NCBI GenBank assembly: GCA_049517415.1
Contig: JBEKSC010000008.1
Coordinates: 1 to 64,000 of the forward strand
DNA length: 64,000 nt
From: Candidatus Bathyarchaeia archaeon
GTDB taxonomy: Archaea; Thermoproteota; Bathyarchaeia; 40CM-2-53-6
Direction of reading: 5' to 3'
Position numbers and translations under genes: made by a program. Below, one piece after another: positions 5,871 to 28,416 of this stretch. Each line of letters begins with the position of its first letter. Positions within the stretch are counted from its first letter, which is position 1. The notes beneath the pieces are model-generated. The model saw only the letters and a list, made by a program, of their open reading frames with translations. It was not told the origin of the DNA and made no database searches.

Positions 5871-8645
5871 ATGTCAGCTACCCGGCAAGCCCTGAGGAAG
5901 GTGCGTGGCTTCCTAGGGAAGTACGTAAACCGCGAAACACTTGCCGGCCGTGTTGAAGGAACTCGCAAAGTTCTTTCAGGCATCTCTCGAGGAACAGCCA
6001 TAGAAGCAATTGTAGTTGGCTTGATTGTTCTCATAGCACTAGCCGTCCGAATAATGCCTATCCGCTGGGGATTCTTCCTAAACGAATTCGATCCGTACCT
6101 GCAATGGCGCATGGCACAGTACGTGGTCGATCACGGTTTCTTGGCGTGGTTTAACTGGCATGACACGATGAGTTGGTATCCATACGGCGCGGACATGCCC
6201 ACATGGAACCTCTACGGTACGGCCTTCGTAATAGCGGCAATTACGATGATACTGAATTATGTTGGCGTAAATGTAACCGTGTTTGTGGTTGCAATTATCT
6301 TTCCAGTAGTCGCCGGAACCCTAACCGTTCTAGCAGCATACTTCCTTGGAAAGGATTTCTGGGGAAAAGGCGCAGGATTGTTTACCGCCCTGTTCTTGGC
6401 TTTGAATCCAAGCAGTATCGGCCGAACCCAACTTGGTTTTCTCCGTCATGAGCCGCTTGGCATTCTCCTGATGATACTGATCTTCCTCTTCTTCAGAAGG
6501 TCGACTGTGCCAACCTCTTCAACCCGTAAGACGCTGATATACGCTGGCTTAACCGGCTTCATGCTCTTCTACCTGGCCGCGGAGTGGGCCGGAGGCCTAT
6601 ACCCGCTGGACCTACTGGTTCTCTACGTAGTTGTTTTAGGCGTACTGGGTCGTTCCTCGAAGAAACTCTTCCTAAGCTATTCTATCACTATGGGGATATT
6701 CTTACTCTTTACACCATTTTTGGTCCCGAAGCTTGGGTTAGCCTCACTTAGTGATTTCGGCTGGCTGGTGATCCCGGTTGGGGAAGTAGTCCTACTTGCT
6801 CGCGAAGCCTCCTCATATGTCACCAATAGGATGCACCAGATTTACGCGCTAACGGCGACGGTACTTGGAACCATAGCCGTTGTTGGCTTTCTTTCGTATT
6901 TCCACGTGGTTTCTTTCCCCTATGGCAAATTCTATGCCGTAATAGACCCGTTTGTCCGAGGTAACGTTCCAATCATCGCAAGTGTTGCGGAACATCAACC
7001 CGCAACATGGGGTTCGTTCTTCTACGAATTTGGAGGGCTTATTTTTCTGATTCTGTTCGGCTTCGTTTTCATCCTGCAAAGGGTTAGGAACGACGATATC
7101 TTCCTACTTCTATGGGGAGTCACTGCTGTCTATTTTGCGGCATCCTTCGTCCGTCTAACCTTGCTCCTTGCTCCGGCATTCTGCATATTAGCTGCCATAG
7201 GGACAGTGGAACTTGGAAAACCTGCAGTCGACATTGTGCGCGAGGCGGTTATCTATCCAAAGCATAAGACACGAGTCATAAGTAGAATTGGCCGAGAGTT
7301 TGGTGTCGCCATCTTCCTAATCCTCCTCATAATCATAATTCCGACCTTCTGGACGGCGGTGCGTGGTTCATACCAACCCGCCACAATCGTCACTTCGAGT
7401 ATACCCACAGCTCCAACAGCTGGGCAGGAATTCAAGTATGCAGATTGGCTTGAGGCGTTGTCGTGGATGCAACAGAACACGCCTACTGGTTCGGTTATTT
7501 TCGCGTGGTGGGACTATGGGTATTGGATCACAGCTCTAGGCAATCGGAAAACGCTCGCAGATAACGGTACCCAAAACGACACGCAGATAGCCGTGATAGC
7601 TCAAACCTTCCTCGACAATACCACTATGGCGATCCCTAATCTCCAGAAGTATAACGTATCCTACGTGGCTATCTTTATCACGCCTTCAGGTGGCAGTCAA
7701 GGAGGATACCAAGGGTTCGGCGAGGACGGGAAATGGTATTGGATGGCTCGCATCGGAAATAACACGATGTGGAACAACTATAAAGTGATCTACACGGAAA
7801 CTACTGTCGCCACTCAAAGTGGTAGCACCAGTTCGAGCTATACCCAATTGCTCGAGGACTCGAAAGGAAGAGTCGTAAGTAACGATACGATTGCAGACAA
7901 TAACCAGCTCAACGACCACACGATGTTAGGCTACATGATGGCTGAGGTAACAAATGCGGCAAATGAACATGCCTCTCCATACTTCACACGTGTCTTCTCT
8001 TCATCGAACAACTTTGTATTCCTCTTCCAGGTGAGAATTCTAAGGTCAGTTCACCTATCGATCAATCCAACCAAACACGAAATCCCATACGGACAGCAAG
8101 TGGTGCTTGCTGGGAGTCTTGGTGATGCCTCTGGAAACCCATTAAGCATCAACAACCCGTCGGTCGCATTAGAAACATCTACCGACAGTGGCCAAACGTG
8201 GCAGCAAATAACAACCGCGCCTGTCTCTCCAAACGGAACGTATAGCTACAACTGGACACCTGACGCTGGCAATTACATTATTCGAGCCCACTACCTAGGT
8301 GCTGTCGGACCGTACGCAGAGGCTGCGACTACGCCTGAAGCCCTACTTGTGCAAACCGGAACAGTAAATTTGAGTATCACAACACCCTCCCATTCAGTAA
8401 CGATCGGCCAGAACGTTACGGTGACGGTTCAAATGTCCCCGTTCGTGAGCGGAGCCAACGTAACCATATCGTATACCTTTGACAACAAAACATTTGTTCC
8501 GATCCAAACTGTAATCATGAATTCCCCCAGCATGAGTTTCACTTGGCTTGTTAACATACCTGGGAGCTTTACATTGGCCGCGAACTGGCCAGGAAACCAA
8601 AACTACAACCGAGCACTGGCGGAAATTACGCTCAACAAGTCATGA
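5871..8645 (+). CDS. aglB: Oligosaccharyltransferase AglB/STT3 with C-terminal Ig-like extension
   Basis: NEFDPY, multi-TM N-terminal half, SVAEHQP, WWDYG, DNGTQNDTQI; about 200-aa beta-rich tail. Confidence 0.93.
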   Translation: MSATRQALRKVRGFLGKYVNRETLAGRVEGTRKVLSGISRGTAIEAIVVGLIVLIALAVRIMPIRWGFFLNEFDPYLQWRMAQYVVDHGFLAWFNWHDTMSWYPYGADMPTWNLYGTAFVIAAITMILNYVGVNVTVFVVAIIFPVVAGTLTVLAAYFLGKDFWGKGAGLFTALFLALNPSSIGRTQLGFLRHEPLGILLMILIFLFFRRSTVPTSSTRKTLIYAGLTGFMLFYLAAEWAGGLYPLDLLVLYVVVLGVLGRSSKKLFLSYSITMGIFLLFTPFLVPKLGLASLSDFGWLVIPVGEVVLLAREASSYVTNRMHQIYALTATVLGTIAVVGFLSYFHVVSFPYGKFYAVIDPFVRGNVPIIASVAEHQPATWGSFFYEFGGLIFLILFGFVFILQRVRNDDIFLLLWGVTAVYFAASFVRLTLLLAPAFCILAAIGTVELGKPAVDIVREAVIYPKHKTRVISRIGREFGVAIFLILLIIIIPTFWTAVRGSYQPATIVTSSIPTAPTAGQEFKYADWLEALSWMQQNTPTGSVIFAWWDYGYWITALGNRKTLADNGTQNDTQIAVIAQTFLDNTTMAIPNLQKYNVSYVAIFITPSGGSQGGYQGFGEDGKWYWMARIGNNTMWNNYKVIYTETTVATQSGSTSSSYTQLLEDSKGRVVSNDTIADNNQLNDHTMLGYMMAEVTNAANEHASPYFTRVFSSSNNFVFLFQVRILRSVHLSINPTKHEIPYGQQVVLAGSLGDASGNPLSINNPSVALETSTDSGQTWQQITTAPVSPNGTYSYNWTPDAGNYIIRAHYLGAVGPYAEAATTPEALLVQTGTVNLSITTPSHSVTIGQNVTVTVQMSPFVSGANVTISYTFDNKTFVPIQTVIMNSPSMSFTWLVNIPGSFTLAANWPGNQNYNRALAEITLNKS

Positions 8646-17222: not shown

Positions 17223-17663
17223 TTTGTTCGCCTTTTTGATTGGCCTTAAGGTCCTTTAGGGGCTCTAGGGGTTGTTAATTTGGGTTACTTATCCGCCCGC
17301 CCTTAGCCTAGGGTTTAGGGTTGCGAAAACTAACCAAACCGTGCTAGCTGCCTGGAGCGGGAGCATCTAAGTATTGGCGGAGTTGGGGAGGTTCAACGTG
17401 TAAACCTTTTCGTAATTGGAGACTGCAGTTGCAAAGAGGCCTTACAATACGCTGCATTATCGTAATCATGCTCTAGGTAGCATGGTCTTCTTCTTCGACT
17501 TTCACGAACACGATTGGCCAGTAAAATGCCTCGTAAAGTATGAATCCTAATTTCCGGCTCTCACGCCTGATCTTTGGTGACGCGGATGGGTACGAATCGC
17601 TACCTCCAGAAAAGCCCACTACTTTTTCCAGCAAATAACTCGACTATTAGAGCCTTTCAGGTC

Positions 17664-17725
17664 ACGGTTCAATTTGCGTTGCCCGCACCAGTAGACTCTC
17701 ACACACGTTTTTCAACGACGAACGA
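17664..17725 (+). repeat. Dispersed repeat family copy A
   Basis: acggttcaatttgcgttgcccgcaccagtagactctcacacacgtttttcaacgacgaacga; aligns by eye with the copy at 18813-18871. Confidence 0.8.
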
Positions 17726-17782
17726 TCATGTTCGGAATCGGTGGGTGTTATCGCTCCTTTCTTATCGCATCGTGAAGCGAAT

Positions 17783-18727
17783 CTACTTAGCACGTTTTGG
17801 CATCCAGAATAGGTAGTACATGAGGTAGAATGCCGCGATTCCGCTGAAAGGAGAGAATTTGCTTAGAAGTCGTCGAACTTCATTTGAGCCAATTCGCTTG
17901 CCTTTGAAATACGCTTGTGAGATTGCGCGTTGAATTCCTAGGTCGTCAGCAGGCAATGAATTCACCCTTCCCATGCCCCGAATCAACGTATATTCCGCAG
18001 TCCAAGGACCAACGCCCCTAATCTTGGTTAGCTCTGCAATCGCCGTCTCATCATCCATCCTCCTTAGACCTTCAAGGTCTAACTCCTTGCCTTCAACTTT
18101 CTTGGAAAGTTCACTTATGTACAATGCCTTATTCCTACTGAGCCCAACAGCCATCATTTGGTTCAGCTTTGCTTTCGCTAAAACCGCGGGAGTTGGAAAG
18201 GCATAGAAGCTTCTTCCCTCGAACTCCACACTCTCTCCATACTTCTCAATCAGGCGAGAGCGTACCGCTGCTGCAGCCTCGAGTGAAATCTGCTGCTCGG
18301 TAATGGCGATTACCAAGGCTTCAAAAATAGTCGGCGGTGAAACAGCTCTCAGCCCTCTGAGCTTCCATGAAACAATACTCATCAATCGGTCTTTCTTAAC
18401 AAACGAATAGAACTTGTCAAAATCAAACGAAGCTGCAAACATCGTATGCAGTAGTCTCTTCAATGCTTTAACTTCCTGAGCCAACAAACCTGGGTGAGCT
18501 TCCACGCTAAGACGTGGTTTTTCGATGGTTCCCTTGGATGTAACTAGGACAAGGACTGGATTCTCAGCAAGGTGAAGAACTCTTTTGTAAACACCGTTTT
18601 CATATACGTCTGGAAGGCTTTTCTCAAACCGACAGTGAATCCCCGCGCTTCTTTCAAAGTCGAATGGGGATTCGGGAAAAATGAAGAAACCTGTTTTGGA
18701 ACCAGTGATTCTGAGGGTCTTATCCAT
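17783..18727 (-). CDS. alkA: AlkA-family DNA-3-methyladenine glycosylase
   Basis: FEALVIAITEQQIS, AFPTP, HhH motif LTKIRGVGPWTAEY, PADDLGIQ. Confidence 0.92.
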   Translation of the reverse strand: MDKTLRITGSKTGFFIFPESPFDFERSAGIHCRFEKSLPDVYENGVYKRVLHLAENPVLVLVTSKGTIEKPRLSVEAHPGLLAQEVKALKRLLHTMFAASFDFDKFYSFVKKDRLMSIVSWKLRGLRAVSPPTIFEALVIAITEQQISLEAAAAVRSRLIEKYGESVEFEGRSFYAFPTPAVLAKAKLNQMMAVGLSRNKALYISELSKKVEGKELDLEGLRRMDDETAIAELTKIRGVGPWTAEYTLIRGMGRVNSLPADDLGIQRAISQAYFKGKRIGSNEVRRLLSKFSPFSGIAAFYLMYYLFWMPKRAK

Positions 18728-18791
18728 GAGTTGCTCGTAGCACGCTGAGAGAGTTACATGTTAAGTATTTGTGGATCTTGGCCACTTTAGT

Positions 18792-18877
18792 CGCACACAC
18801 TTCCTAGCGATTACGGTTCAAATTTGCCTGCTCGCACCAGCTGACCCACACACACTTTCTATGACGAACGACGACGG
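18792..18877 (+). repeat. Dispersed repeat family copy B (about 1.5 tandem units)
   Basis: cgcacacacttcctagcgattacggttcaaatttgcctgctcgcaccagctgacccacacacactttctatgacgaacgacgacgg. Confidence 0.8.
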
Positions 18878-19872
18878 CGGCCTTTTGGGGTCTTTCCGAG
18901 GATCTTACAAAGTTCGACGAAACTGCTTATGGCCAATGGAATACCCACTCCGAGGTAAAGCGAAGAGAAGAATATAGATTGGTCACGTTGTGTAACTAAA
19001 TTCGTAATCTGAAAATCAACTAACACAAAACTACCAGAGGCGTAAAGTGGGCTCGCTCTACTAATATCCCACTGGTACCACAGATTTCCTCCAGAGGCGA
19101 AAATGTTGTCTTCAGTCGGCGATGATTCAATTATGGCACCAGCAGGTTGCGCCACGTCCAGAACGTAACTCTCGCTGTCAAATTGGTTGAGAGGAGTTAC
19201 AGGACCAGGTACTATGTTCTAGATTGCAGGGCCGTAGTCGAACCGGTTGGTCAACTCGTATGTGGAGTAGGAATTCCGCAAGAGTGGCGTTTTAATGATA
19301 ATTGTCGCATTGAACCAAAAGAAATCATAAGACGTGTTATGATTTATCATACGATTTGCGCGAACCCAGAAATATGATAAGCCTGTTGCTTTGTCGAATC
19401 CCGGAGAGTAAGTAAAGTTAGGATTAGGATATCTGCTACTCATGCTTGTACCGAAAGAGCTCATTGGAGTCAGCGTCTTTTGCATGCTGAAAGATACATC
19501 CCAATCCAGTATTGTCGCAGAAGAATTGTATGGAATCTCAGCTCCGAACACTATCTGGCTCGAGTTGAACTGCGTTTTGAAGGAGCACGATATGGAAAGA
19601 ACTGCAGCGTTGAGATCTGGCCTTATCCCGTAGACCATAACTGCAACTCTTGTTGAGGTGATTCCGTAATTCCCGGCCAGAGTTGGATAATGTGAGGCGA
19701 AAATAGCTAACCCGTAAGATGAGGATGCAGGCGCATTACTAGGGAAGTTGAAAACGTTCTGTAGGCCCGTGGATCCACAGAAAGCAAGTACGATACCACT
19801 AAAGAGAAAAATGAGCAGGAGATAAGGCACTCTCCGGTTGACGACTCTTCCGAAGCTATCTATGCTAACCAT
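18859..19872 (-). pseudogene. Membrane-anchored extracellular protein interrupted by one in-frame TAG (19219-19221)
   Basis: ORFs 19219..19872 and 18859..19155 share a frame and the 63 nt between them are open (PAI*NIVPGPVTPLNQFDSESYVLDVAQP); N-terminal signal/TM and C-terminal TM. Confidence 0.7.
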
Positions 19873-20060
19873 CTAACCGAGACCCTGTTATTAGACCTGA
19901 ATAGTCCCTATAGCCACTAATGAATCGACCAGTGTCAATAACGTACGATTTAGGCTTACACGCCTACAATCATCCCCCAGCAGGAACTGCAATCGCCAAG
20001 CTAATTCAGCATGAACCGGGGGGGAATCTCAGCGTACACATGGAAACCCTTACGTGGACT

Positions 20061-20129
20061 TGTGGGTCTAGTGGTGCGCGCGCACACACTTTCCAACGAC
20101 AAACGACGACGGGTCGAATTTTGCTGCTC
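20061..20129. repeat. Dispersed repeat family copy C (composite of inverted and forward halves)
   Basis: tgtgggtctagtggtgcgcgcgcacacactttccaacgacaaacgacgacgggtcgaattttgctgctc. Confidence 0.8.
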
Positions 20130-20181
20130 TTACCGAAGTTTTTTATGGATTCATTACGCACCTTTAGCTGGGTTTGATGTA

Positions 20182-20448
20182 ATGAACATGAAGTTGATGG
20201 TTCTTGTTTCTGTTGTTGCTGGTTTGGTGATTACGCTGATCACCGGGTTGGTTGATGTGACGCCTATGCACCTGGTGGGTGCAACTTGGCATGGTTGGCC
20301 GCTCCCTTGGTTCTATGTAATTGTCTACCCAGGCTCACCGATCTCGGTTAATTGGCTCAACTTAATCGGTGATATCATCGTCTGGTTTGTCATAGTCCTC
20401 GCAGTTGCCTTAGTGATTTCGAAATTCAAGAAGACGTCCAAAACTTAG
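20182..20448 (+). CDS. Small two-TM membrane protein
   Basis: MNMKLMVLVSVVAGLVITL...WHGWPLPW...NLIGDIIVWFVIVL; the longer 20011 start would run through repeat C and is unlikely. Confidence 0.7.
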   Translation: MNMKLMVLVSVVAGLVITLITGLVDVTPMHLVGATWHGWPLPWFYVIVYPGSPISVNWLNLIGDIIVWFVIVLAVALVISKFKKTSKT

Positions 20449-20549
20449 GATGCATTCGAGGTAACGATCGGAATCCGCTGAGCCCATGGCACAATTCGTC
20501 CCGAGAAGGGTGAGGCTCAGAGAGGGGGGCAGGGGATTCTGACCCCAAT

Positions 20550-20741
20550 TTAGCGGTACACATAGCCTTGCAGTGAAGCAACGGAACAATGCGAGTTCAA
20601 ATTCCGATGCTCGTACCAGAAGGCGGCCCCTCCATCTGAGGTCAGGTCGCCCACTAAAGCCACAACATCCGGTCGAATTCTATCTACCCGTTCTTCGTAT
20701 CCTTCCCATTTCACAACATCAGAGAAGGCAAGTATCTTCAT
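20550..20741 (-). pseudogene. Truncated metallophosphoesterase (N-terminal motifs only)
   Basis: MKILAFSD...RPDVVALVGDLT then sequence degenerates and stops; no GNHD or later motifs. Confidence 0.65.
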
Positions 20742-20749
20742 CGAGCCCA

Positions 20750-21964
20750 CTAGGTCCAACCGCCAAGCTTCGTCATGACGGGTTTGTAGATGGTGAATTG
20801 GTCTTTACAGGCGTTCTTGCGCAAATATTGAAGGGTGCTCTTTCCAATCCCAAGGCGTCTTGCCTTGGAGCCGGTCAGTGCAAGAATCCTAGCTCGCACT
20901 TCTCGGTCATCACTCCTCTGCAGCCTCGGAGCGGGTTCTGCAAAATCAAGCGTGAGTGATTTCTCGAGTAGAAATCGGCCCAGCTCGTTGGTCTTCTGCT
21001 CAATAACAGTATCCCATTTCAGAACTCGGTGTTTGCATGCTACGCCAGCGTTGAATCGCTCACGAATGAGATCGATGAAGCGCTGCTTCGCTTCAACCTC
21101 GAAACGGTATCGGTAATCGTCCCCTGTGAAGTAGAAGTCGGATAGGTTCAAGGCTTCAGACTGGAATGCCGCGATGACCGAAATGTCAGATAGCCACCTG
21201 AACGGCTCCTGTAAATCATACACTAAAGACTGCTTTGTCTGATAGTCGCTGACATCATGAAAGAAACCGACCGAGGGTTCCAGGCCGACCGCGTTTATTG
21301 CTCGTCGACATTCACCCTCTAGGAAACCATAACCGTAGTTTAGGGCCAAGTTCACGGGATCTGAGGCGTTGTTCTGGTGGCTTGAAGTCATTCGCTCTTG
21401 GAAATCCAAGTGCTCGGGCATCACTTTCCCGAATGCTTCCCAGTATCTCCTAGCTACACGTCCTTCGACAGTTCGTAGGTCTGGCACTGTGGAGGCTCTT
21501 CTGAGCTTTGATGCCTCAAGCTTCGTTACTTGAATCTCCCTAGGAATATCATACCGCTCGGCCAACCAATCAAGAACTTGCAGACTCCTCTCAATTTTCG
21601 CTTGAACGAGCGCTCTGGCTATGCTGAACTTCTTCTTCGGATCGTTCGCAGCTAGAATTTGTGCAGCCCGCAGATCGGCCTTAACAGGCATTGGAGGCAG
21701 AACACTAGAAATCAGACTTCCATCGAAGTTCATGATGAAGACAGGAACCTTATGCTTCGACAGCCAGTGAAACGCTTGGAGAGAAATGTACCCACTGTGC
21801 CCATCGATGATGATGGTGCCGTAAGGGAAACGTCGCGGACGAAAACGGTGCGTAGATTCTGCTCTGTCATCTTCTCGCCAGTTGATGACCTCAAGTTCAG
21901 ATCTTGACTTGAGACTGTTAACGCGGATCTTGGCGCCCCAACCGGATAGATGAAGCGGATTCAA
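20750..21964 (-). CDS. cas1: Solo Cas1 of casposase type with C-terminal HTH
   Basis: MNPLHLSGWG, IIIDGHSGYISLQAFHWL, catalytic EGRVARRYW / GFFHD / LVYDLQEPFR, ASDPVNLALNYGY, C-terminal ARRLGIGKSTLQY HTH. Confidence 0.92.
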   Translation of the reverse strand: MNPLHLSGWGAKIRVNSLKSRSELEVINWREDDRAESTHRFRPRRFPYGTIIIDGHSGYISLQAFHWLSKHKVPVFIMNFDGSLISSVLPPMPVKADLRAAQILAANDPKKKFSIARALVQAKIERSLQVLDWLAERYDIPREIQVTKLEASKLRRASTVPDLRTVEGRVARRYWEAFGKVMPEHLDFQERMTSSHQNNASDPVNLALNYGYGFLEGECRRAINAVGLEPSVGFFHDVSDYQTKQSLVYDLQEPFRWLSDISVIAAFQSEALNLSDFYFTGDDYRYRFEVEAKQRFIDLIRERFNAGVACKHRVLKWDTVIEQKTNELGRFLLEKSLTLDFAEPAPRLQRSDDREVRARILALTGSKARRLGIGKSTLQYLRKNACKDQFTIYKPVMTKLGGWT

Positions 21965-21966
21965 AC

Positions 21967-22413
21967 CTAATGCCCTCCCTGTCTACTTTCATATTCCTTG
22001 AGCTTCTGGTCGGCCAACTTGCCTGCTTCCTTCAATCGTTGTATCTCTCTTTCAGTAGGCCTTGATCTCGTCTTTGTGTTTGCACGGGCCACTATTGATT
22101 GCCAGCGTTCGTTGAGATATCCTACAGCGAAGCTTTCGCCTACAGGACTTGTAAGGAATTCAACGAATTTATCGGGATCGACTGCGAATGCCAACACTAT
22201 TAATCCGTAGTTGCTGAAGCAAGATTTCCAACCTTTTTTCAACTGTTCAGCATCGAGCCAGTTCCTTTTCGCTGAGAACATACTCTCAGCGAGGAAAGCC
22301 GTATACCGGGTTGAGGACCAGTGGGTCAATGCATACTTTAGGTACAGCGACCTTTCGTTAACCATTGTCAATCTAGAGTACGGTCTCATTGCAGTTGACT
22401 CAGGAGTCCTCAT
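21967..22413 (-). CDS. Hypothetical protein directly upstream of cas1
   Basis: 148-aa ORF ending 2 nt before the cas1 start, suggesting translational coupling; no recognised motif. Confidence 0.5.
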   Translation of the reverse strand: MRTPESTAMRPYSRLTMVNERSLYLKYALTHWSSTRYTAFLAESMFSAKRNWLDAEQLKKGWKSCFSNYGLIVLAFAVDPDKFVEFLTSPVGESFAVGYLNERWQSIVARANTKTRSRPTEREIQRLKEAGKLADQKLKEYESRQGGH

Positions 22414-22744
22414 GCTATCACATGGCGATCCAATATCTTCGATGCTGAATAGCGCGTTCTTGCATCGAGTAATGAACTATCTCGCTGACTGGTCACCGTT
22501 CAAAACAAACAGTTATCCAAACGATGGTCTGAAACTGTACTCCGAGACAGGGAAAATGCTTAACGCCATTTTTGTGAGAGTTGCGGATGGCAAGACCTGG
22601 CACATTGCCTTTCATCTCAAGCCGGAAACGTCAACCGACGCGATCAAACCTGACATGGTCAAGCTACTCTCAATGCTAGCATCTTTAGGTTTGGTGAAGA
22701 ACCCTGTTGTGAGAGAACGAGTGGGTAAGAAACCTTGGATATGA
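22412..22744 (+). CDS. Hypothetical protein (3' part of ORF 22211..22744)
   Basis: Open frame; ATG at 22412 avoids overlap with the minus-strand ORF; no recognised motif. Confidence 0.35.
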   Translation: MLSHGDPISSMLNSAFLHRVMNYLADWSPFKTNSYPNDGLKLYSETGKMLNAIFVRVADGKTWHIAFHLKPETSTDAIKPDMVKLLSMLASLGLVKNPVVRERVGKKPWI

Positions 22745-22852
22745 TATTAGTGATAGACAGACTGAACAAGTGTGAGAGACCGTTCTCCGAACGAGAATGA
22801 ACCATCTCCAATTTTCTCCTCGACACACAAAGCGACGCTGCCAGAATTAGAT

Positions 22853-22948
22853 TCGGTCGTCCGTCTAGTGTGTGTGCGCACCATTAGACCCACACCCTTT
22901 CTAACGACGCTGGTCCAAATTACGACTCTCGCAAGCACTAGGTCCACA
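22853..22948. repeat. Dispersed repeat family copy D (inverted partner of C, about 1.5 units)
   Basis: ...agtgtgtgtgcgcaccattagacccacaccctttctaacgacgctggtccaaattacgactctcgcaagcactaggtccaca. Confidence 0.8.
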
Positions 22949-23168
22949 ATGAAGGAAAACGCGATAGTTGGACAGTTGAAATCACAGATAACGCAAATGG
23001 CGACTGCCAACTCTACAGGAGGCTGATTGGAATAATTTGATTGGATTGACGAAGAGTCTTACTTCTTCGCCGATTGCTTAGCGTAGGCCGCCAAACCACC
23101 ATCCGACACGCCATAATACTTAACCATTTGACTAAGCTTTTGCCATAAAGCTTTGCCAATTCAAAGCG

Positions 23169-25806: not shown

Positions 25807-28416
25807 ATGTCGAAAACACTTGAAAGCTACTTTACGGAAAAGCGCGAGGAGATCAAACTGGCCCCGAGGCCTCTGGTCAAGCGGCAGAGCCTAGTCTTCT
25901 ATCCGGCAATGCCAGCGTCAATCCCTCCATCATACTTGGTCTCCATAGGGTATGACGGGGATCTCAAGAAATGTTTTCTGCGTCTCTACGAACCTAAGTC
26001 GCATAAAATCTATTTTTGGTTTGACGACTCGGGTCACAAACCCTACTGTTACAGCAAGCAGTCGGTCGGGGAGCTTCAGAGAGTGGAGGCGGTAGCGAGG
26101 AACCCTGGGTTCGACCATTTCGAGGAGGAAACGAAGTTTGACGCGCTTCGGAGTGAGCAAGTTAAAGTGACGAAGATCGTCGCCAAAGACCCACTGACAA
26201 TCGGTGGAAAACCTACCGGTTCAATGCGCGACGCCATAACCGCATGGGAAGCTGACATAAAGTACGTCGAGAATTTCATCTATGACCGCGGGCTCGAACC
26301 TGGCATGATGTACGAGTTTAAAGACAAACAGTTGGCCGCGGTGAAATACGAACTACCGGAAGAAGCAGCGATGGAAATTGACAGTCTCTTCCGGGATGAA
26401 TCTCAAGAGTACCAAGGCCTAGCAAGAGAATGGATGCGGCTCCTTGAGTGCCCCGTACCAGAGTACAGGAGGGCGGCCGTAGACATTGAAGTTTTTCAGG
26501 CCGTAGAGTCACGTATTCCCGATCCAGAATTATCGGAACATCCAGTAATTTGTGCAAGCCTAGTCGGATCCGATGGTGCCAAACGCGTACTCCTCTTACG
26601 ACGAGAAGGGACTCCTGAGGGTCAGGCTTCGTTACCAACTGGCGTCGAATCGGAATTCTATGACACCGAGGAAGAATTGTTAATCGCTCTATTCCAAGCT
26701 TTCCTGGATTATCCGATAGTAGTCACATTCAACGGTGACGATTTTGACCTGAAATACCTCTACCACCGCGCTCAAAGGTTGGGTTTTAGAAATGAAGAAA
26801 TTCCAATCGAGTTAGGCCGCGATGTCGCCTTTCTCAAGTATGGTGTCCATGTAGACCTCTACAAGTTCTTCTTCAACAGGTCTATCCAAATTTACGCGTT
26901 CGGCCAGAAGTACCGGGAGAACACGCTGGACGCTGTCGGCGCGGCGCTAATCGGCACTCCAAAGGTCGAAATAGAATCAGTCTCGAAAGCATCCTACAGG
27001 CAATTGGCCGCCTACTGCTATCGTGACTCCGAAATTGTCCTCAACCTGACTTCTTTCAACGAAGATTTGGTCATGAAGTTGATGACGGCGATATCACGAA
27101 TCAGCTACATGACGCTGGACGATGTCTCAAGACAGGGAGTGTCGGGTTGGATTCGAAGCATACTGTTCTGTCACCACCGCAAACGAGGATACTTGATTCC
27201 TAGGAGAGACGAGATTCTGGAGGTCAAAGGCCAAACTGCTACGGAAGCTGTGATTAAGGGCAAGAAGTACAAGGGCGCAATAGTTGTTGAACCTAAACCA
27301 GGCGTCCATTTCAACGTCGCAGTCCTCGACTTTGCATCACTGTACCCTTCTATCATCAAGGTCTGGAACCTCGGCTACGAGACAGTTCGCTGTCCACACG
27401 TGGACGAGGCTTGCAGGAAGAACCTAATCCCAGGAACGCCCCACTGGGTCTGCAAAAAGAAGCGGGGACTTGAAAGCCTGCTGATTGGTTCGCTTAGGGA
27501 CCTGCGAGTTGGCAGGTACAAGGTCAAGTCGAAAGACCGTTCCTTACCACCGAACATGAAGAGTTGGTACAAAGTCGTATCCGATGCGCTGAAGGTGGTA
27601 CTAAATGCCTCCTACGGTGTCTTCGGTGCGGATAATTTTGCGTTGTATTGTCCGCCTGTCGCCGAGGCCACTGCCGCAATAGGCAGGCACGTTATAACTC
27701 AAGCATTGCAGAAAGCGCAGGAACTTAATTTGGAAGTCTTCTACGGTGACACGGATTCCATATTTCTTCAAGGCCAGGATAAAGTCTCGCTTAACAAGCT
27801 CATCGAATGGTCTACCAGCCAGCTCAGGATGGAGTTGGAAATCGACAAGAACTATCGTTACCTTGCCCTTAGTTCAAGGAAGAAGAACTACTTCGGCGTC
27901 CTGCCCGATGGAAGCGTAGACATCAAGGGATTGACAGGGAAAAAGCGGCATATTCCAGAGTTCTTGCACGGCGCCTTTTACGAAATGGTTTCGGCCCTGG
28001 CCGAAGTCAAATCGCCGGAAGACATCGACATTGCGAAAGCGAAAACAATTGATATCGTGAAACGCAGTTACGTGAGACTGCGGAACAGGGAATACACGCT
28101 CCAGGAACTAGCCTTTTCAATGATGATGAGCAGAACCCCGGAAAATTACACAAAAACGACCCCGCAGCACGTGAAAGCGGCCAAGCAATTACAAGAAGCC
28201 GGCGCAGAAATGAAACCAGGCGATATTATATCCTTTGTCAAGGTACGGGGCGAGCCCGGAGTTAAGCCTGTGCAACTTGCTAGGCTAGAAGACGTAGACA
28301 CTGAGAAATACATCGAATATATCCGGGGCACATTCGAGCAGGTACTTGACGCTTTAGGAGTCGAATTCGAAGATTTGGCTGGCGTAAAGAAACTGGAATC
28401 CTTCTTCAATGGGTAA
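25807..28416 (+). CDS. polB: Family B DNA polymerase (cellular PolB1 type)
   Basis: Exo DIEV, FNGDDFD, YCYRD; pol DFASLYPSII, KVVLNASYG, YGDTDS, KKNYFG, KGLTGKK. Confidence 0.96.
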   Translation: MSKTLESYFTEKREEIKLAPRPLVKRQSLVFYPAMPASIPPSYLVSIGYDGDLKKCFLRLYEPKSHKIYFWFDDSGHKPYCYSKQSVGELQRVEAVARNPGFDHFEEETKFDALRSEQVKVTKIVAKDPLTIGGKPTGSMRDAITAWEADIKYVENFIYDRGLEPGMMYEFKDKQLAAVKYELPEEAAMEIDSLFRDESQEYQGLAREWMRLLECPVPEYRRAAVDIEVFQAVESRIPDPELSEHPVICASLVGSDGAKRVLLLRREGTPEGQASLPTGVESEFYDTEEELLIALFQAFLDYPIVVTFNGDDFDLKYLYHRAQRLGFRNEEIPIELGRDVAFLKYGVHVDLYKFFFNRSIQIYAFGQKYRENTLDAVGAALIGTPKVEIESVSKASYRQLAAYCYRDSEIVLNLTSFNEDLVMKLMTAISRISYMTLDDVSRQGVSGWIRSILFCHHRKRGYLIPRRDEILEVKGQTATEAVIKGKKYKGAIVVEPKPGVHFNVAVLDFASLYPSIIKVWNLGYETVRCPHVDEACRKNLIPGTPHWVCKKKRGLESLLIGSLRDLRVGRYKVKSKDRSLPPNMKSWYKVVSDALKVVLNASYGVFGADNFALYCPPVAEATAAIGRHVITQALQKAQELNLEVFYGDTDSIFLQGQDKVSLNKLIEWSTSQLRMELEIDKNYRYLALSSRKKNYFGVLPDGSVDIKGLTGKKRHIPEFLHGAFYEMVSALAEVKSPEDIDIAKAKTIDIVKRSYVRLRNREYTLQELAFSMMMSRTPENYTKTTPQHVKAAKQLQEAGAEMKPGDIISFVKVRGEPGVKPVQLARLEDVDTEKYIEYIRGTFEQVLDALGVEFEDLAGVKKLESFFNG

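Follow-up and report, generated by a model that had tools for sequence, protein, structure and literature searches.

The question raised by the locus described here is what a Cas1 integrase is doing in an archaeal genome where neither a CRISPR array nor an element-borne DNA polymerase has been found to accompany it. The gene lies in a 64,000-nt stretch of a Candidatus Bathyarchaeia archaeon (assembly GCA_049517415.1, contig JBEKSC010000008.1, positions 1 to 64,000), called the window below; its contig is referred to as C8 and the other contigs of the same metagenome-assembled genome (MAG) by similar numbers, with G and L numbers for the genomes and loci of relatives. By definition, casposons are self-synthesizing transposons, and the CRISPR spacer integrase is held to descend from their Cas1. 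At a probability that we put at about three in four, the window gene encodes an intact casposase resembling those of casposon family 2, in a decayed or rearranged copy of a casposon family without family B DNA polymerase (PolB). The original prediction, made from the letters of the window, had offered three options, namely a PolB-less mini-casposon, a decayed casposon and a domesticated integrase; the first two are borne out jointly, while the third is disfavoured by the patchy, multi-copy occurrence of the family and by its absence from the corresponding site in relative G014.

The 404-aa Cas1 matches the Pfam Cas_Cas1 profile at 176 bits (cut-off 22.3) and the generic Cas1 model TIGR00287 at 162 bits (cut-off 71.7). 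All eight subtype-specific NCBIfam Cas1 models remain far under their cut-offs (I-D, for example, 109 against 385), and the casposase of Aciduliprofundum boonei gives the same NCBIfam pattern, with no subtype model passing. Seven columns, G82, E167, Y212, H236, D250, E253 and D260, are invariant in an alignment of 60 sequences reaching down to 26% identity, and since they include E167, H236, D250 and E253, the predicted E/H/D-E catalytic set is judged to be complete. The catalytic residues of Cas1 are given in E. coli numbering as E141/H208/D218/D221 in the available text of PMC9939771, and the motif contexts in the alignment with the casposase structure 6OPM suggest how the window residues correspond to these. 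The AlphaFold model (mean predicted local distance difference test score, pLDDT, 89; predicted template modelling score, pTM, 0.86) has the two-domain Cas1 fold and ends in a four-helix part at residues 354-401 (helices 354-362, 365-370, 375-385 and 394-401). This belongs to a C-terminal helix-turn-helix (HTH) region of about residues 345-404, and the last 60-70 residues align with the C-termini of 6OPM and of the A. boonei Cas1; no Pfam HTH model matches the C-terminal part. Open reading frame (ORF), invariant columns, alignments and model all agree with the earlier description of a 404-aa Cas1 with the E/H/D-E residues intact and a C-terminal HTH. One public gene caller takes M78 as the start of the protein, on 21 contigs. 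The proposed dN/dS check points to long-term purifying selection on the Cas1 family, with pN at 0.13-0.32 and far below a saturated pS of 0.70-0.88 in all nine comparisons among Cas1 copies.

Among solved structures, the best relative of the window Cas1 is 6OPM, the Methanosarcina mazei casposase (E 4e-69, 237 bits, query residues 36-403), against 79 bits for the best CRISPR Cas1, 4n06. The fold search with Foldseek likewise puts 6OPM, "Casposase bound to integration product", at the top (E 1e-28, TM 0.79/0.88, 33% identity), with the A. fulgidus Cas1 4n06 as runner-up (E 1e-19). Residues 1-400 align to the Cas1 named for A. boonei, which was recovered by a search seeded from a distant family member, at 34% identity (E 7e-73), and the two have a C-terminal stretch GI.KSTL.Y in common. 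The available text on the 6OPM casposase of M. mazei (PMC6977970) describes an extra C-terminal HTH of 60-70 residues in family 2 casposases that is required for activity. Two sequences tried as stand-ins for the M. mazei cluster, P0136 and P0139, were rejected, neither belonging to that cluster. Profiles for Cas2, Cas4, Cas5 and Cas6 have no match across the whole MAG, and scans of it with Tandem Repeats Finder (TRF) and by k-mers detected no CRISPR-like array, only degenerate repeats at 72-94% match; the MAG (2.65 Mb, 59 contigs) is rated 100% complete with 6.9% contamination, and these absences hold for this assembly. No other cas gene is present among the 53 scanned ORFs of the window's 63 ORFs of at least 70 aa. 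The statement that the 64 kb hold neither an array nor another cas gene is matched in the MAG as a whole for an array and for cas2, cas4, cas5 and cas6; the cas2 gene and array that had been named as evidence for a CRISPR role were looked for there and neither was found. Taken from these sequence comparisons, the gene appears to encode a family-2-like casposase that is not part of CRISPR immunity. Public records annotate the window Cas1 as "CRISPR-associated", in an organism without a detected CRISPR system.

The nature of the element is clearest at the other copies of the gene. The Cas1 family lives in small PolB-less elements of about 5-11 kb bounded by terminal inverted repeats (TIRs) and target-site duplications (TSDs), which is what the proposed comparison of neighbourhoods brought out at the relatives' Cas1 loci. 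Their landmark is a 15-bp core, CGCACCA plus 8 nt, which has 58 sites in this genome with neighbours of three kinds: an upstream tRNA-3'-end-like piece, upstream (GT)n or (GGC)n, and downstream (CA)n or (CCG)n. The tRNA-3'-end-like piece consists of GGTTCAAAT, then 5 + 7 nt, then an A-CCA geometry; the 21-nt motif was counted 40 times in the genome and 0-2 times in shuffles. The real tRNA genes of the genome encode CCA, and several end in CGCACCA. The 21-nt motif was also considered as a consistent TIR and rejected, being found near relatives' Cas1 loci but not regularly flanking Cas1.

On contig C3 of the same genome, three identical cores CGCACCACTATACCC lie at 151783, 143154 and 135145, which is every copy of this 15-mer in the genome, and the order on the minus strand is tRNA-like piece, core, element E1 (8.6 kb, with a full Cas1), core, element E2 (8.0 kb, with a truncated Cas1), core. 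Three loci in relatives show the same organization. L015 has a 50-nt TIR (92%) abutting identical 15-bp direct repeats (15/15) around 7.1 kb; L016 has the same TIR/TSD pattern around 4.9 kb, with a 17-nt TIR and 10 of 10 visible TSD nucleotides, the left repeat being cut by the contig start; and in L025 identical cores (15/15) stand 11.0 kb apart with (CCG)n ends and a 23-nt TIR at 100%. Clean boundaries are thereby seen at 4 of the 12 full-length Cas1 loci. Identical core pairs on the same strand amount to 6 of 47 eligible, where shuffling would give 1.3 (P about 0.005). BLAST inverted-repeat searches, both of which covered L009, L010 and L011, returned no flanking pair at the C3 locus, L009, L010 and L078, and just 13-14-nt matches with E of at least 1.3 at L011, L076, L077 and L079. 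No tyrosine or serine recombinase was detected among the scanned ORFs of E1, L015, L016 and L025, a 75-aa rve_3 scrap (E 7e-4) being a weak exception. Elsewhere in the genome, at C9:17612-21031 (L044), a truncated Cas1 of 201 aa lies beside a 351-aa ORF resembling, by eye, a tyrosine recombinase, and at 21031 the locus has a tRNA-like piece together with a core and a (CCG)n end.

The family is large. At 67-80% identity to the window Cas1 there are more than 120 clusters of proteins of 400-430 aa, the named ones being from Candidatus Bathyarchaeia MAGs, and an exhaustive homologue search gave 113 representatives at E <= 1e-30 and 2110 at 1e-10. A Cas1-family match is present in 14 of the 23 genomes of the genus, at 0-11 places per genome, many of them truncated or with stop codons; the L-numbered loci and these genus-wide places overlap partly in coordinates and are not independent. 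This genome has five Cas1 places, two full length and three fragments, and the second full-length copy (C3:145166-146398) is 72% identical to the window Cas1. The window stretch itself is found near-identical in 20 metagenome runs from 19 studies (2014-2025) that sampled soil, peat and wetland, and each of these runs may be the source sample. In four metagenome runs its Cas1 part has 0.8-1.0x the depth of the part to the left, with no variant letters listed inside the gene.

The window does contain a PolB gene, which the original prediction did not mention, 3.8 kb from the Cas1 gene. It matches the PolB1 equivalog model NF004417 (Table 1) and lies behind agmatinase and RsmB, an order also kept in relatives G014 and G004, where this place is without Cas1. 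Because of this match and of a place kept in relatives without Cas1, it is judged from its sequence and context to be the chromosomal replicative gene and not element cargo, and the statement that the locus has no element-borne PolB holds. Four PolB-like places exist in the genome, and the other three, on C7, C9 and C46, are not within 30 kb of a Cas1 place. No PolB was found on contig C3 or among the scanned ORFs of the TSD-bounded elements E1, L015, L016 and L025, and PF00136 has no match within 20 kb of any of the 19 Cas1 places in five relatives, the nearest being 25 kb off. The protein-primed PolB profile PF03175 has a single match in those five genomes, at L082:3968-5380 (G017:C4:955967-957379; E 1.9e-14), 1.1 kb from a tRNA ending in CGCACCA. 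A truncated Cas1 with 43% identity to that of the window is 10.7 kb away from this gene, which may mark a polymerase-bearing relative of the family. The PolB-like genes at C7:15842-18199 and C46:7503-9782 of this genome have an in-frame TAG or are split in two ORFs, and could be pseudogenes, split genes or cases of recoding.

What the elements carry in addition to Cas1 falls into two arrangements. The elements nearest to the window Cas1 (E1, L010, L011, L076 and L077) have a common divergent module upstream of Cas1, and L015, L016 and L025 have a different module downstream. The upstream module encodes a 296-aa P-loop protein, for which the Atlas leads are hypothetical clusters, viral or from Bathyarchaeota (one of them has PF00910 in 10%), and a protein of about 120 aa (C3:148846-149175) from a family of 124 clusters with invariant D10, D12, G50, H52 and D76 (DxD...GxH...D). 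Several members of the latter family come from contigs equal in length to those of Cas1 homologues in the public collection. The model of the ~120-aa protein (pLDDT 85.7) gives the LigD polymerase domain as best Foldseek match (E 0.01) and, in VIA, Z 5.6 for the AsfvPrimPol domain, tied with ferredoxin-like folds; Pfam AEP-TOTE is reached at E 0.032, and a PDB profile search gave no match. As a lead only, the model suggests a weak likeness to archaeo-eukaryotic primases (AEP), and with it a primase-helicase replicon that might stand in for PolB. Most accessory genes have no Pfam, PHROG or Atlas identity, and HNH is found near the Cas1 loci of 1 of 6 relatives (L025).

Table 1. Features of the window in and around the Cas1 locus
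Position	Strand	Feature	Basis or remark
17226..23113		Strain-specific variable island	Absent from G014 (~93% nt identity); flanks on different contigs there
17667..17731	+	Unit: tRNA-3'-end-like piece, core CGCACCAGTAGACTC, (CA)n-type end	Repeat search
18816..18877	+	Unit: tRNA-3'-end-like piece, core CGCACCAGCTGACCC, (CA)n-type end	Repeat search
20064..20112	-	Reverse-complement core CGCACCACTAGACCC (20064-20078), then right-pointing (CA)n-type end	Repeat search
20162..20480		319-bp repeat at ~2x neighbour depth, forks on both sides	Depth in four metagenome runs; holds 88-aa membrane ORF 20182-20448
20550..20759	-	69-aa ORF directly downstream of Cas1	No family match; metallophosphoesterase N-terminus-like by eye only
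20750..21964	-	Casposase-type Cas1, intact, 404 aa, TTG start	Profile matches, alignment, structure model, fold search
21967..22413	-	148-aa orphan ORF, stops 2 nt before Cas1 start	Overlaps orf177 by 203 nt
22211..22744	+	orf177, probable 3' gene fragment beside element end	tblastn
22868..22876	+	(GT)n terminal repeat, element right end, inverted copy of (CA)n end	As at E1/E2 ends
22877..22891	+	15-bp core CGCACCATTAGACCC in TSD position	Same 15-mer after tRNA-like 3' end at C47:8315
25807..28416	+	Chromosomal replicative PolB1, outside element	NF004417, 1110 bits (cut-off 780)

The copy in the window is less complete (Table 1). It has one recognisable end, a gene fragment and no accessory module, and it lies at an assembly fork, for which reasons it is read as a decayed or rearranged member of the family with an intact integrase. 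None of the accessory genes of the family is present at it. The gene fragment is orf177, whose similarity is confined to the final ~145 aa of a 541-aa AAA_22/AAA_16 ATPase (tblastn, 32% identity, E 1.4e-18, C3:135272-135700); that ATPase sits at the distal end of E2, in the same terminal position as orf177, which is probably a 3' fragment of such a gene, judged by this match. The 148-aa ORF may be partly spurious because of its overlap with orf177; it has no Pfam or PHROG match and no usable Atlas lead, with a weak match in 1 of the 22 other genomes of the genus. Scans for tRNAs and against Rfam gave no tRNA and no known RNA in the window island, the tRNA-like pieces being 3' fragments only. 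A 27-nt inverted repeat at 89%, formed by 20064..20112 with 22853-22894, brackets 2.8 kb; it includes the core motif and crosses the assembly fork. An inverted arrangement of cores is likewise found in L025, and inversion between oppositely oriented copies would explain that of the window.

The end of contig C2 overlaps positions 20373-20480 of the 319-bp repeat, and the join given in the contig is one of two that are possible. If the left part of C8 were joined to that end, the gene order of G014 would be restored, and the Cas1 module would then, on weak grounds, run towards C47, where the tRNA-like piece at 8315 and the right-end core of the window stand together; synteny in G014 places the equivalent of C47:8250 near that of C8:23114. 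With the same join, identical CGCACCAGCTGACCC cores at C8:18833 and C2:167392 (minus strand) would bound an 8.3-kb segment without Cas1 (window 18833-20480 plus C2:167392-174146), which would have genes for a ParA/MinD-like protein, a 5TM-LYT protein, a 987-aa protein and a hexapeptide transferase and possibly be a non-autonomous cargo element. Positions 20517-20571 of the window are a repeat of about 45 nt (..GGGGATTCTGACCCCAATTTAGCGGTACACATAGCC..) that recurs at 90-97% identity on C1, C4, C12 and C20 and also in relatives; in L015 a piece similar to this repeat lies just upstream of the tRNA-like target.

G014, the closest relative, has no Cas1 gene at the site of the window. Gene order with the closest relatives breaks exactly at window 17226-23113 and at C3:128300-151800, and in G014 and G018 the array flanks are either separated by 390-560 kb or placed on other contigs, which suggests that the repeated elements mediate genome rearrangements. 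In G014 the site of the window module, next to agmatinase, is occupied by a cassette (L040:5067-9638, on its contig C2) with an N6/N4 DNA methylase, a 738-aa protein with two GHKL ATPases and a 443-aa orphan, and it looks like a restriction or defence-like cassette. Joints in Logan contigs (20089>22877 and others) were tried as excisions and rejected: with sides of 20-26 nt and inserted letters, they are other copies of the repeat.

Compared with described systems, the nearest are the family 2 casposons (AciBoo-C1, MetMaz, 6OPM), which resemble the Bathyarchaeia elements in a Cas1 with a C-terminal HTH, best by both sequence and fold, a target at a tRNA 3' end or its like, a TSD of 14-15 bp starting with CGCA, tandems sharing TSDs, and solo ends. 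The TSD of M. mazei begins with a conserved CGCA overlapping the tRNA end, as described in the available text of PMC6977970, and tandem casposons sharing one TSD are known from that of PMC4779613. The four classic casposon families are presented as PolB-bearing, and family 2 as having a universal set of Cas1, PolB, HNH and two HTH proteins, in the available portions of the thaumarchaeal mobilome paper and of a 2023 review (PMC9939771); the present family differs in being without PolB, in having HNH near the one relative named above, in its smaller elements (4.9-11 kb), in its other orphan accessory genes and in its Bathyarchaeia host, and falls in a separate clade from the A. boonei protein in a quick, unrooted tree with that one named reference. 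PolB-less casposases as such are already on record: Salgado et al. 2022 (PMC9755687), in the part available, put forward, from hot springs, a family 5 of casposases whose contigs mostly have no PolB and which were read as non-self-replicating, and described its members as having no C-terminal HTH and branching beside subtype I-A Cas1. They are like the present proteins in being archaeal and mostly PolB-less, in keeping the catalytic residues and in having diverse hypothetical neighbours; the window Cas1 is set apart from family 5, by the published description of the latter, in possessing the HTH and in having family 2 casposases as its nearest relatives. What appears to be new here, as far as the available part of that proposal goes, is a PolB-less casposon family with the HTH. 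The literature covered, with subscription journals and supplements outside that coverage, yielded no paper on casposons of Bathyarchaeia or on natural casposons that have an HTH but no PolB, and "mini-casposon" refers in print to laboratory constructs. The Cas1 of CRISPR adaptation has the Cas1 fold and E/H/D-E set in common with the window protein, but the latter comes without cas2, array or subtype signature and with the extra HTH and a mobile-element context. tRNA-targeting integrative elements and Tn7-like island builders also reuse one type of target, giving tandems and islands at synteny breaks; the present elements differ from them in having inverted ends, a 15-bp duplication and Cas1 in place of tyrosine-recombinase att sites or TnsABCD.

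On the model of the M. mazei and A. boonei enzymes, the casposase would bind the inverted ends led by (CA)n or (CCG)n and join the 3'-OH ends of the element to a target resembling a tRNA gene at its 3' end (T-arm, acceptor stem, CGCA-CCA). The joining would duplicate 15 bp (CGCACCA + 8 nt), and this would regenerate the target, so that elements could pile up in tandem arrays and islands. In the window copy the integrase would have been kept intact while the rest of the element was lost or separated. Integrase activity, the choice of target and any continued movement of the window copy, or of other elements by its Cas1, are likewise proposed by analogy.

Several observations weigh against the reading preferred here. 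At the window, the left boundary of the copy falls within a two-copy repeat at an assembly fork, and the join of the Cas1 module to the DNA on the left is ambiguous because the 319-bp repeat forks on both sides and the end of C2 lies inside it. The cores flanking the copy are inverted and differ by one base, leaving no simple TSD in the contig; the putative TSD partner, C47:8315, is on another contig and, as the commonest core variant (8 of the 58 sites), is weak evidence. At the other copies, the TIRs of E1 amount merely to ~9-10 nt of (CA)n/(GT)n, and a clean TIR/TSD was not found within +/-10 kb at 8 of the 12 full-length loci. No empty site was found in the relatives, where both arrays, the window island and that on C3, are rearranged, and the Logan contigs of four runs have no excision joint, though such contigs cannot show rare excised forms. 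As to the protein, both full Cas1 copies of this genome start with TTG, against ATG in 8 related copies. The quick tree (66 rows) gives the Bathyarchaeia proteins a clade of their own (SH-like approximate likelihood ratio test, SH-aLRT, 99) apart from the A. boonei clade; it is unrooted and includes no labelled CRISPR Cas1, and it does not decide between casposase and CRISPR Cas1 or on family membership, because its outgroup is unlabelled by NCBIfam and the A. boonei Cas1 is its single named reference.

Four other explanations of the locus have been weighed. That the gene is an orphan of CRISPR adaptation whose array and partner genes were lost from the assembly is hardly credible; MAGs often miss arrays and the public label is that of a CRISPR protein, but a MAG rated 100% complete has no match to Cas2, Cas4, Cas5 or Cas6, none of the subtype-specific Cas1 models exceeds its cut-off, and a casposase comes out on top by sequence and fold for a protein with a C-terminal HTH. 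We also consider it very improbable that this is an ordinary polymerase-bearing casposon with an overlooked PolB, on an unassembled or unbinned piece or in the form of the gene at 25807. The ambiguous left side of the window element would leave room for this, as would the four PolB-like places in the genome and the relative with a PF03175 PolB 10.7 kb from a truncated, 43%-identical Cas1; yet the window PolB is a PolB1 equivalog in synteny with relatives that have no Cas1 there, the whole TSD-flanked elements of 4.9-11 kb have no ORF fit for PolB, and PF00136 is within 20 kb of 0 of 19 Cas1 places in five relatives.

Somewhat less remote, though still improbable, is the idea that the direct repeats are att sites at which a different recombinase moves tRNA-targeting integrative elements, with Cas1 as a passenger or in another role. 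It would accommodate the tRNA-3'-end-like targets, as with tyrosine-integrase elements, the very short TIRs of some elements, the Cas1-less segments that seem to exist between the same cores and the 351-aa ORF near the C9 Cas1 fragment, a tyrosine recombinase by eye only; it does not fit with the ORFs of E1, L015, L016 and L025, which have no tyrosine or serine recombinase domain, with the 50-nt TIR of L015 directly abutting the 15-bp repeat, or with that 15-bp length and CGCA start, which are those of casposase products. A domesticated integrase, with the element dead and Cas1 retained by the host for a role of its own (DNA repair, or the rearrangement of islands or cassettes), is a similarly doubtful proposition. 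The Cas1 ORF is intact despite the gene fragment beside it, there is long-term purifying selection, the 100%-identical protein is on 56 contigs, and the stretch persists at 0.8-1.0x adjacent depth in four metagenome runs of 2014-2025. Against this, the closest relative has no orthologue at the syntenic site, copies, many of them truncated, occur in just 14 of the 23 genomes of the genus at 0-11 per genome, the other full copy of this genome is inside a complete TSD-bounded element, and selection measured among paralogues is no evidence that the gene is under selection within the host lineage.

A further and more far-reaching possibility, which is unlikely but deserves to be set out, is that the window casposase is the trans-acting integrase of a cassette system and mobilises cargo with (CA)n ends that has neither Cas1 nor PolB. 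A small number of copies with Cas1 would serve many such segments, among them the 8.3-kb segment (C8:18833/C2:167392) and mini-units of ~60-100 nt, inserted into regenerated tRNA-3'-end-like sites; the islands would be integron-like, recombination between inverted copies would drive rearrangements between close relatives, and whole elements would replicate by a small AEP-like primase and a superfamily 3 (SF3)-like ATPase replacing PolB. If this were true, the family would be a living case of a Cas1 integrase working apart from self-synthesis, as is assumed for the stage just before CRISPR adaptation.

To return to the preferred reading of an intact casposase in a decayed or rearranged copy of a PolB-less casposon family, the window alone gives the more modest result of a decayed copy with an intact integrase, and it is the family that carries the wider meaning. 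Its elements stand at the points of rearrangement between the genomes of close relatives. With their defined ends, 15-bp duplication, tRNA-like target and tandem arrays, they make a testable system for the choice of site by Cas1 and the regeneration of that site. This large and widespread family of HTH-bearing casposases in Bathyarchaeia shows a casposase module functioning, or at any rate being maintained by selection, in elements that have no polymerase.

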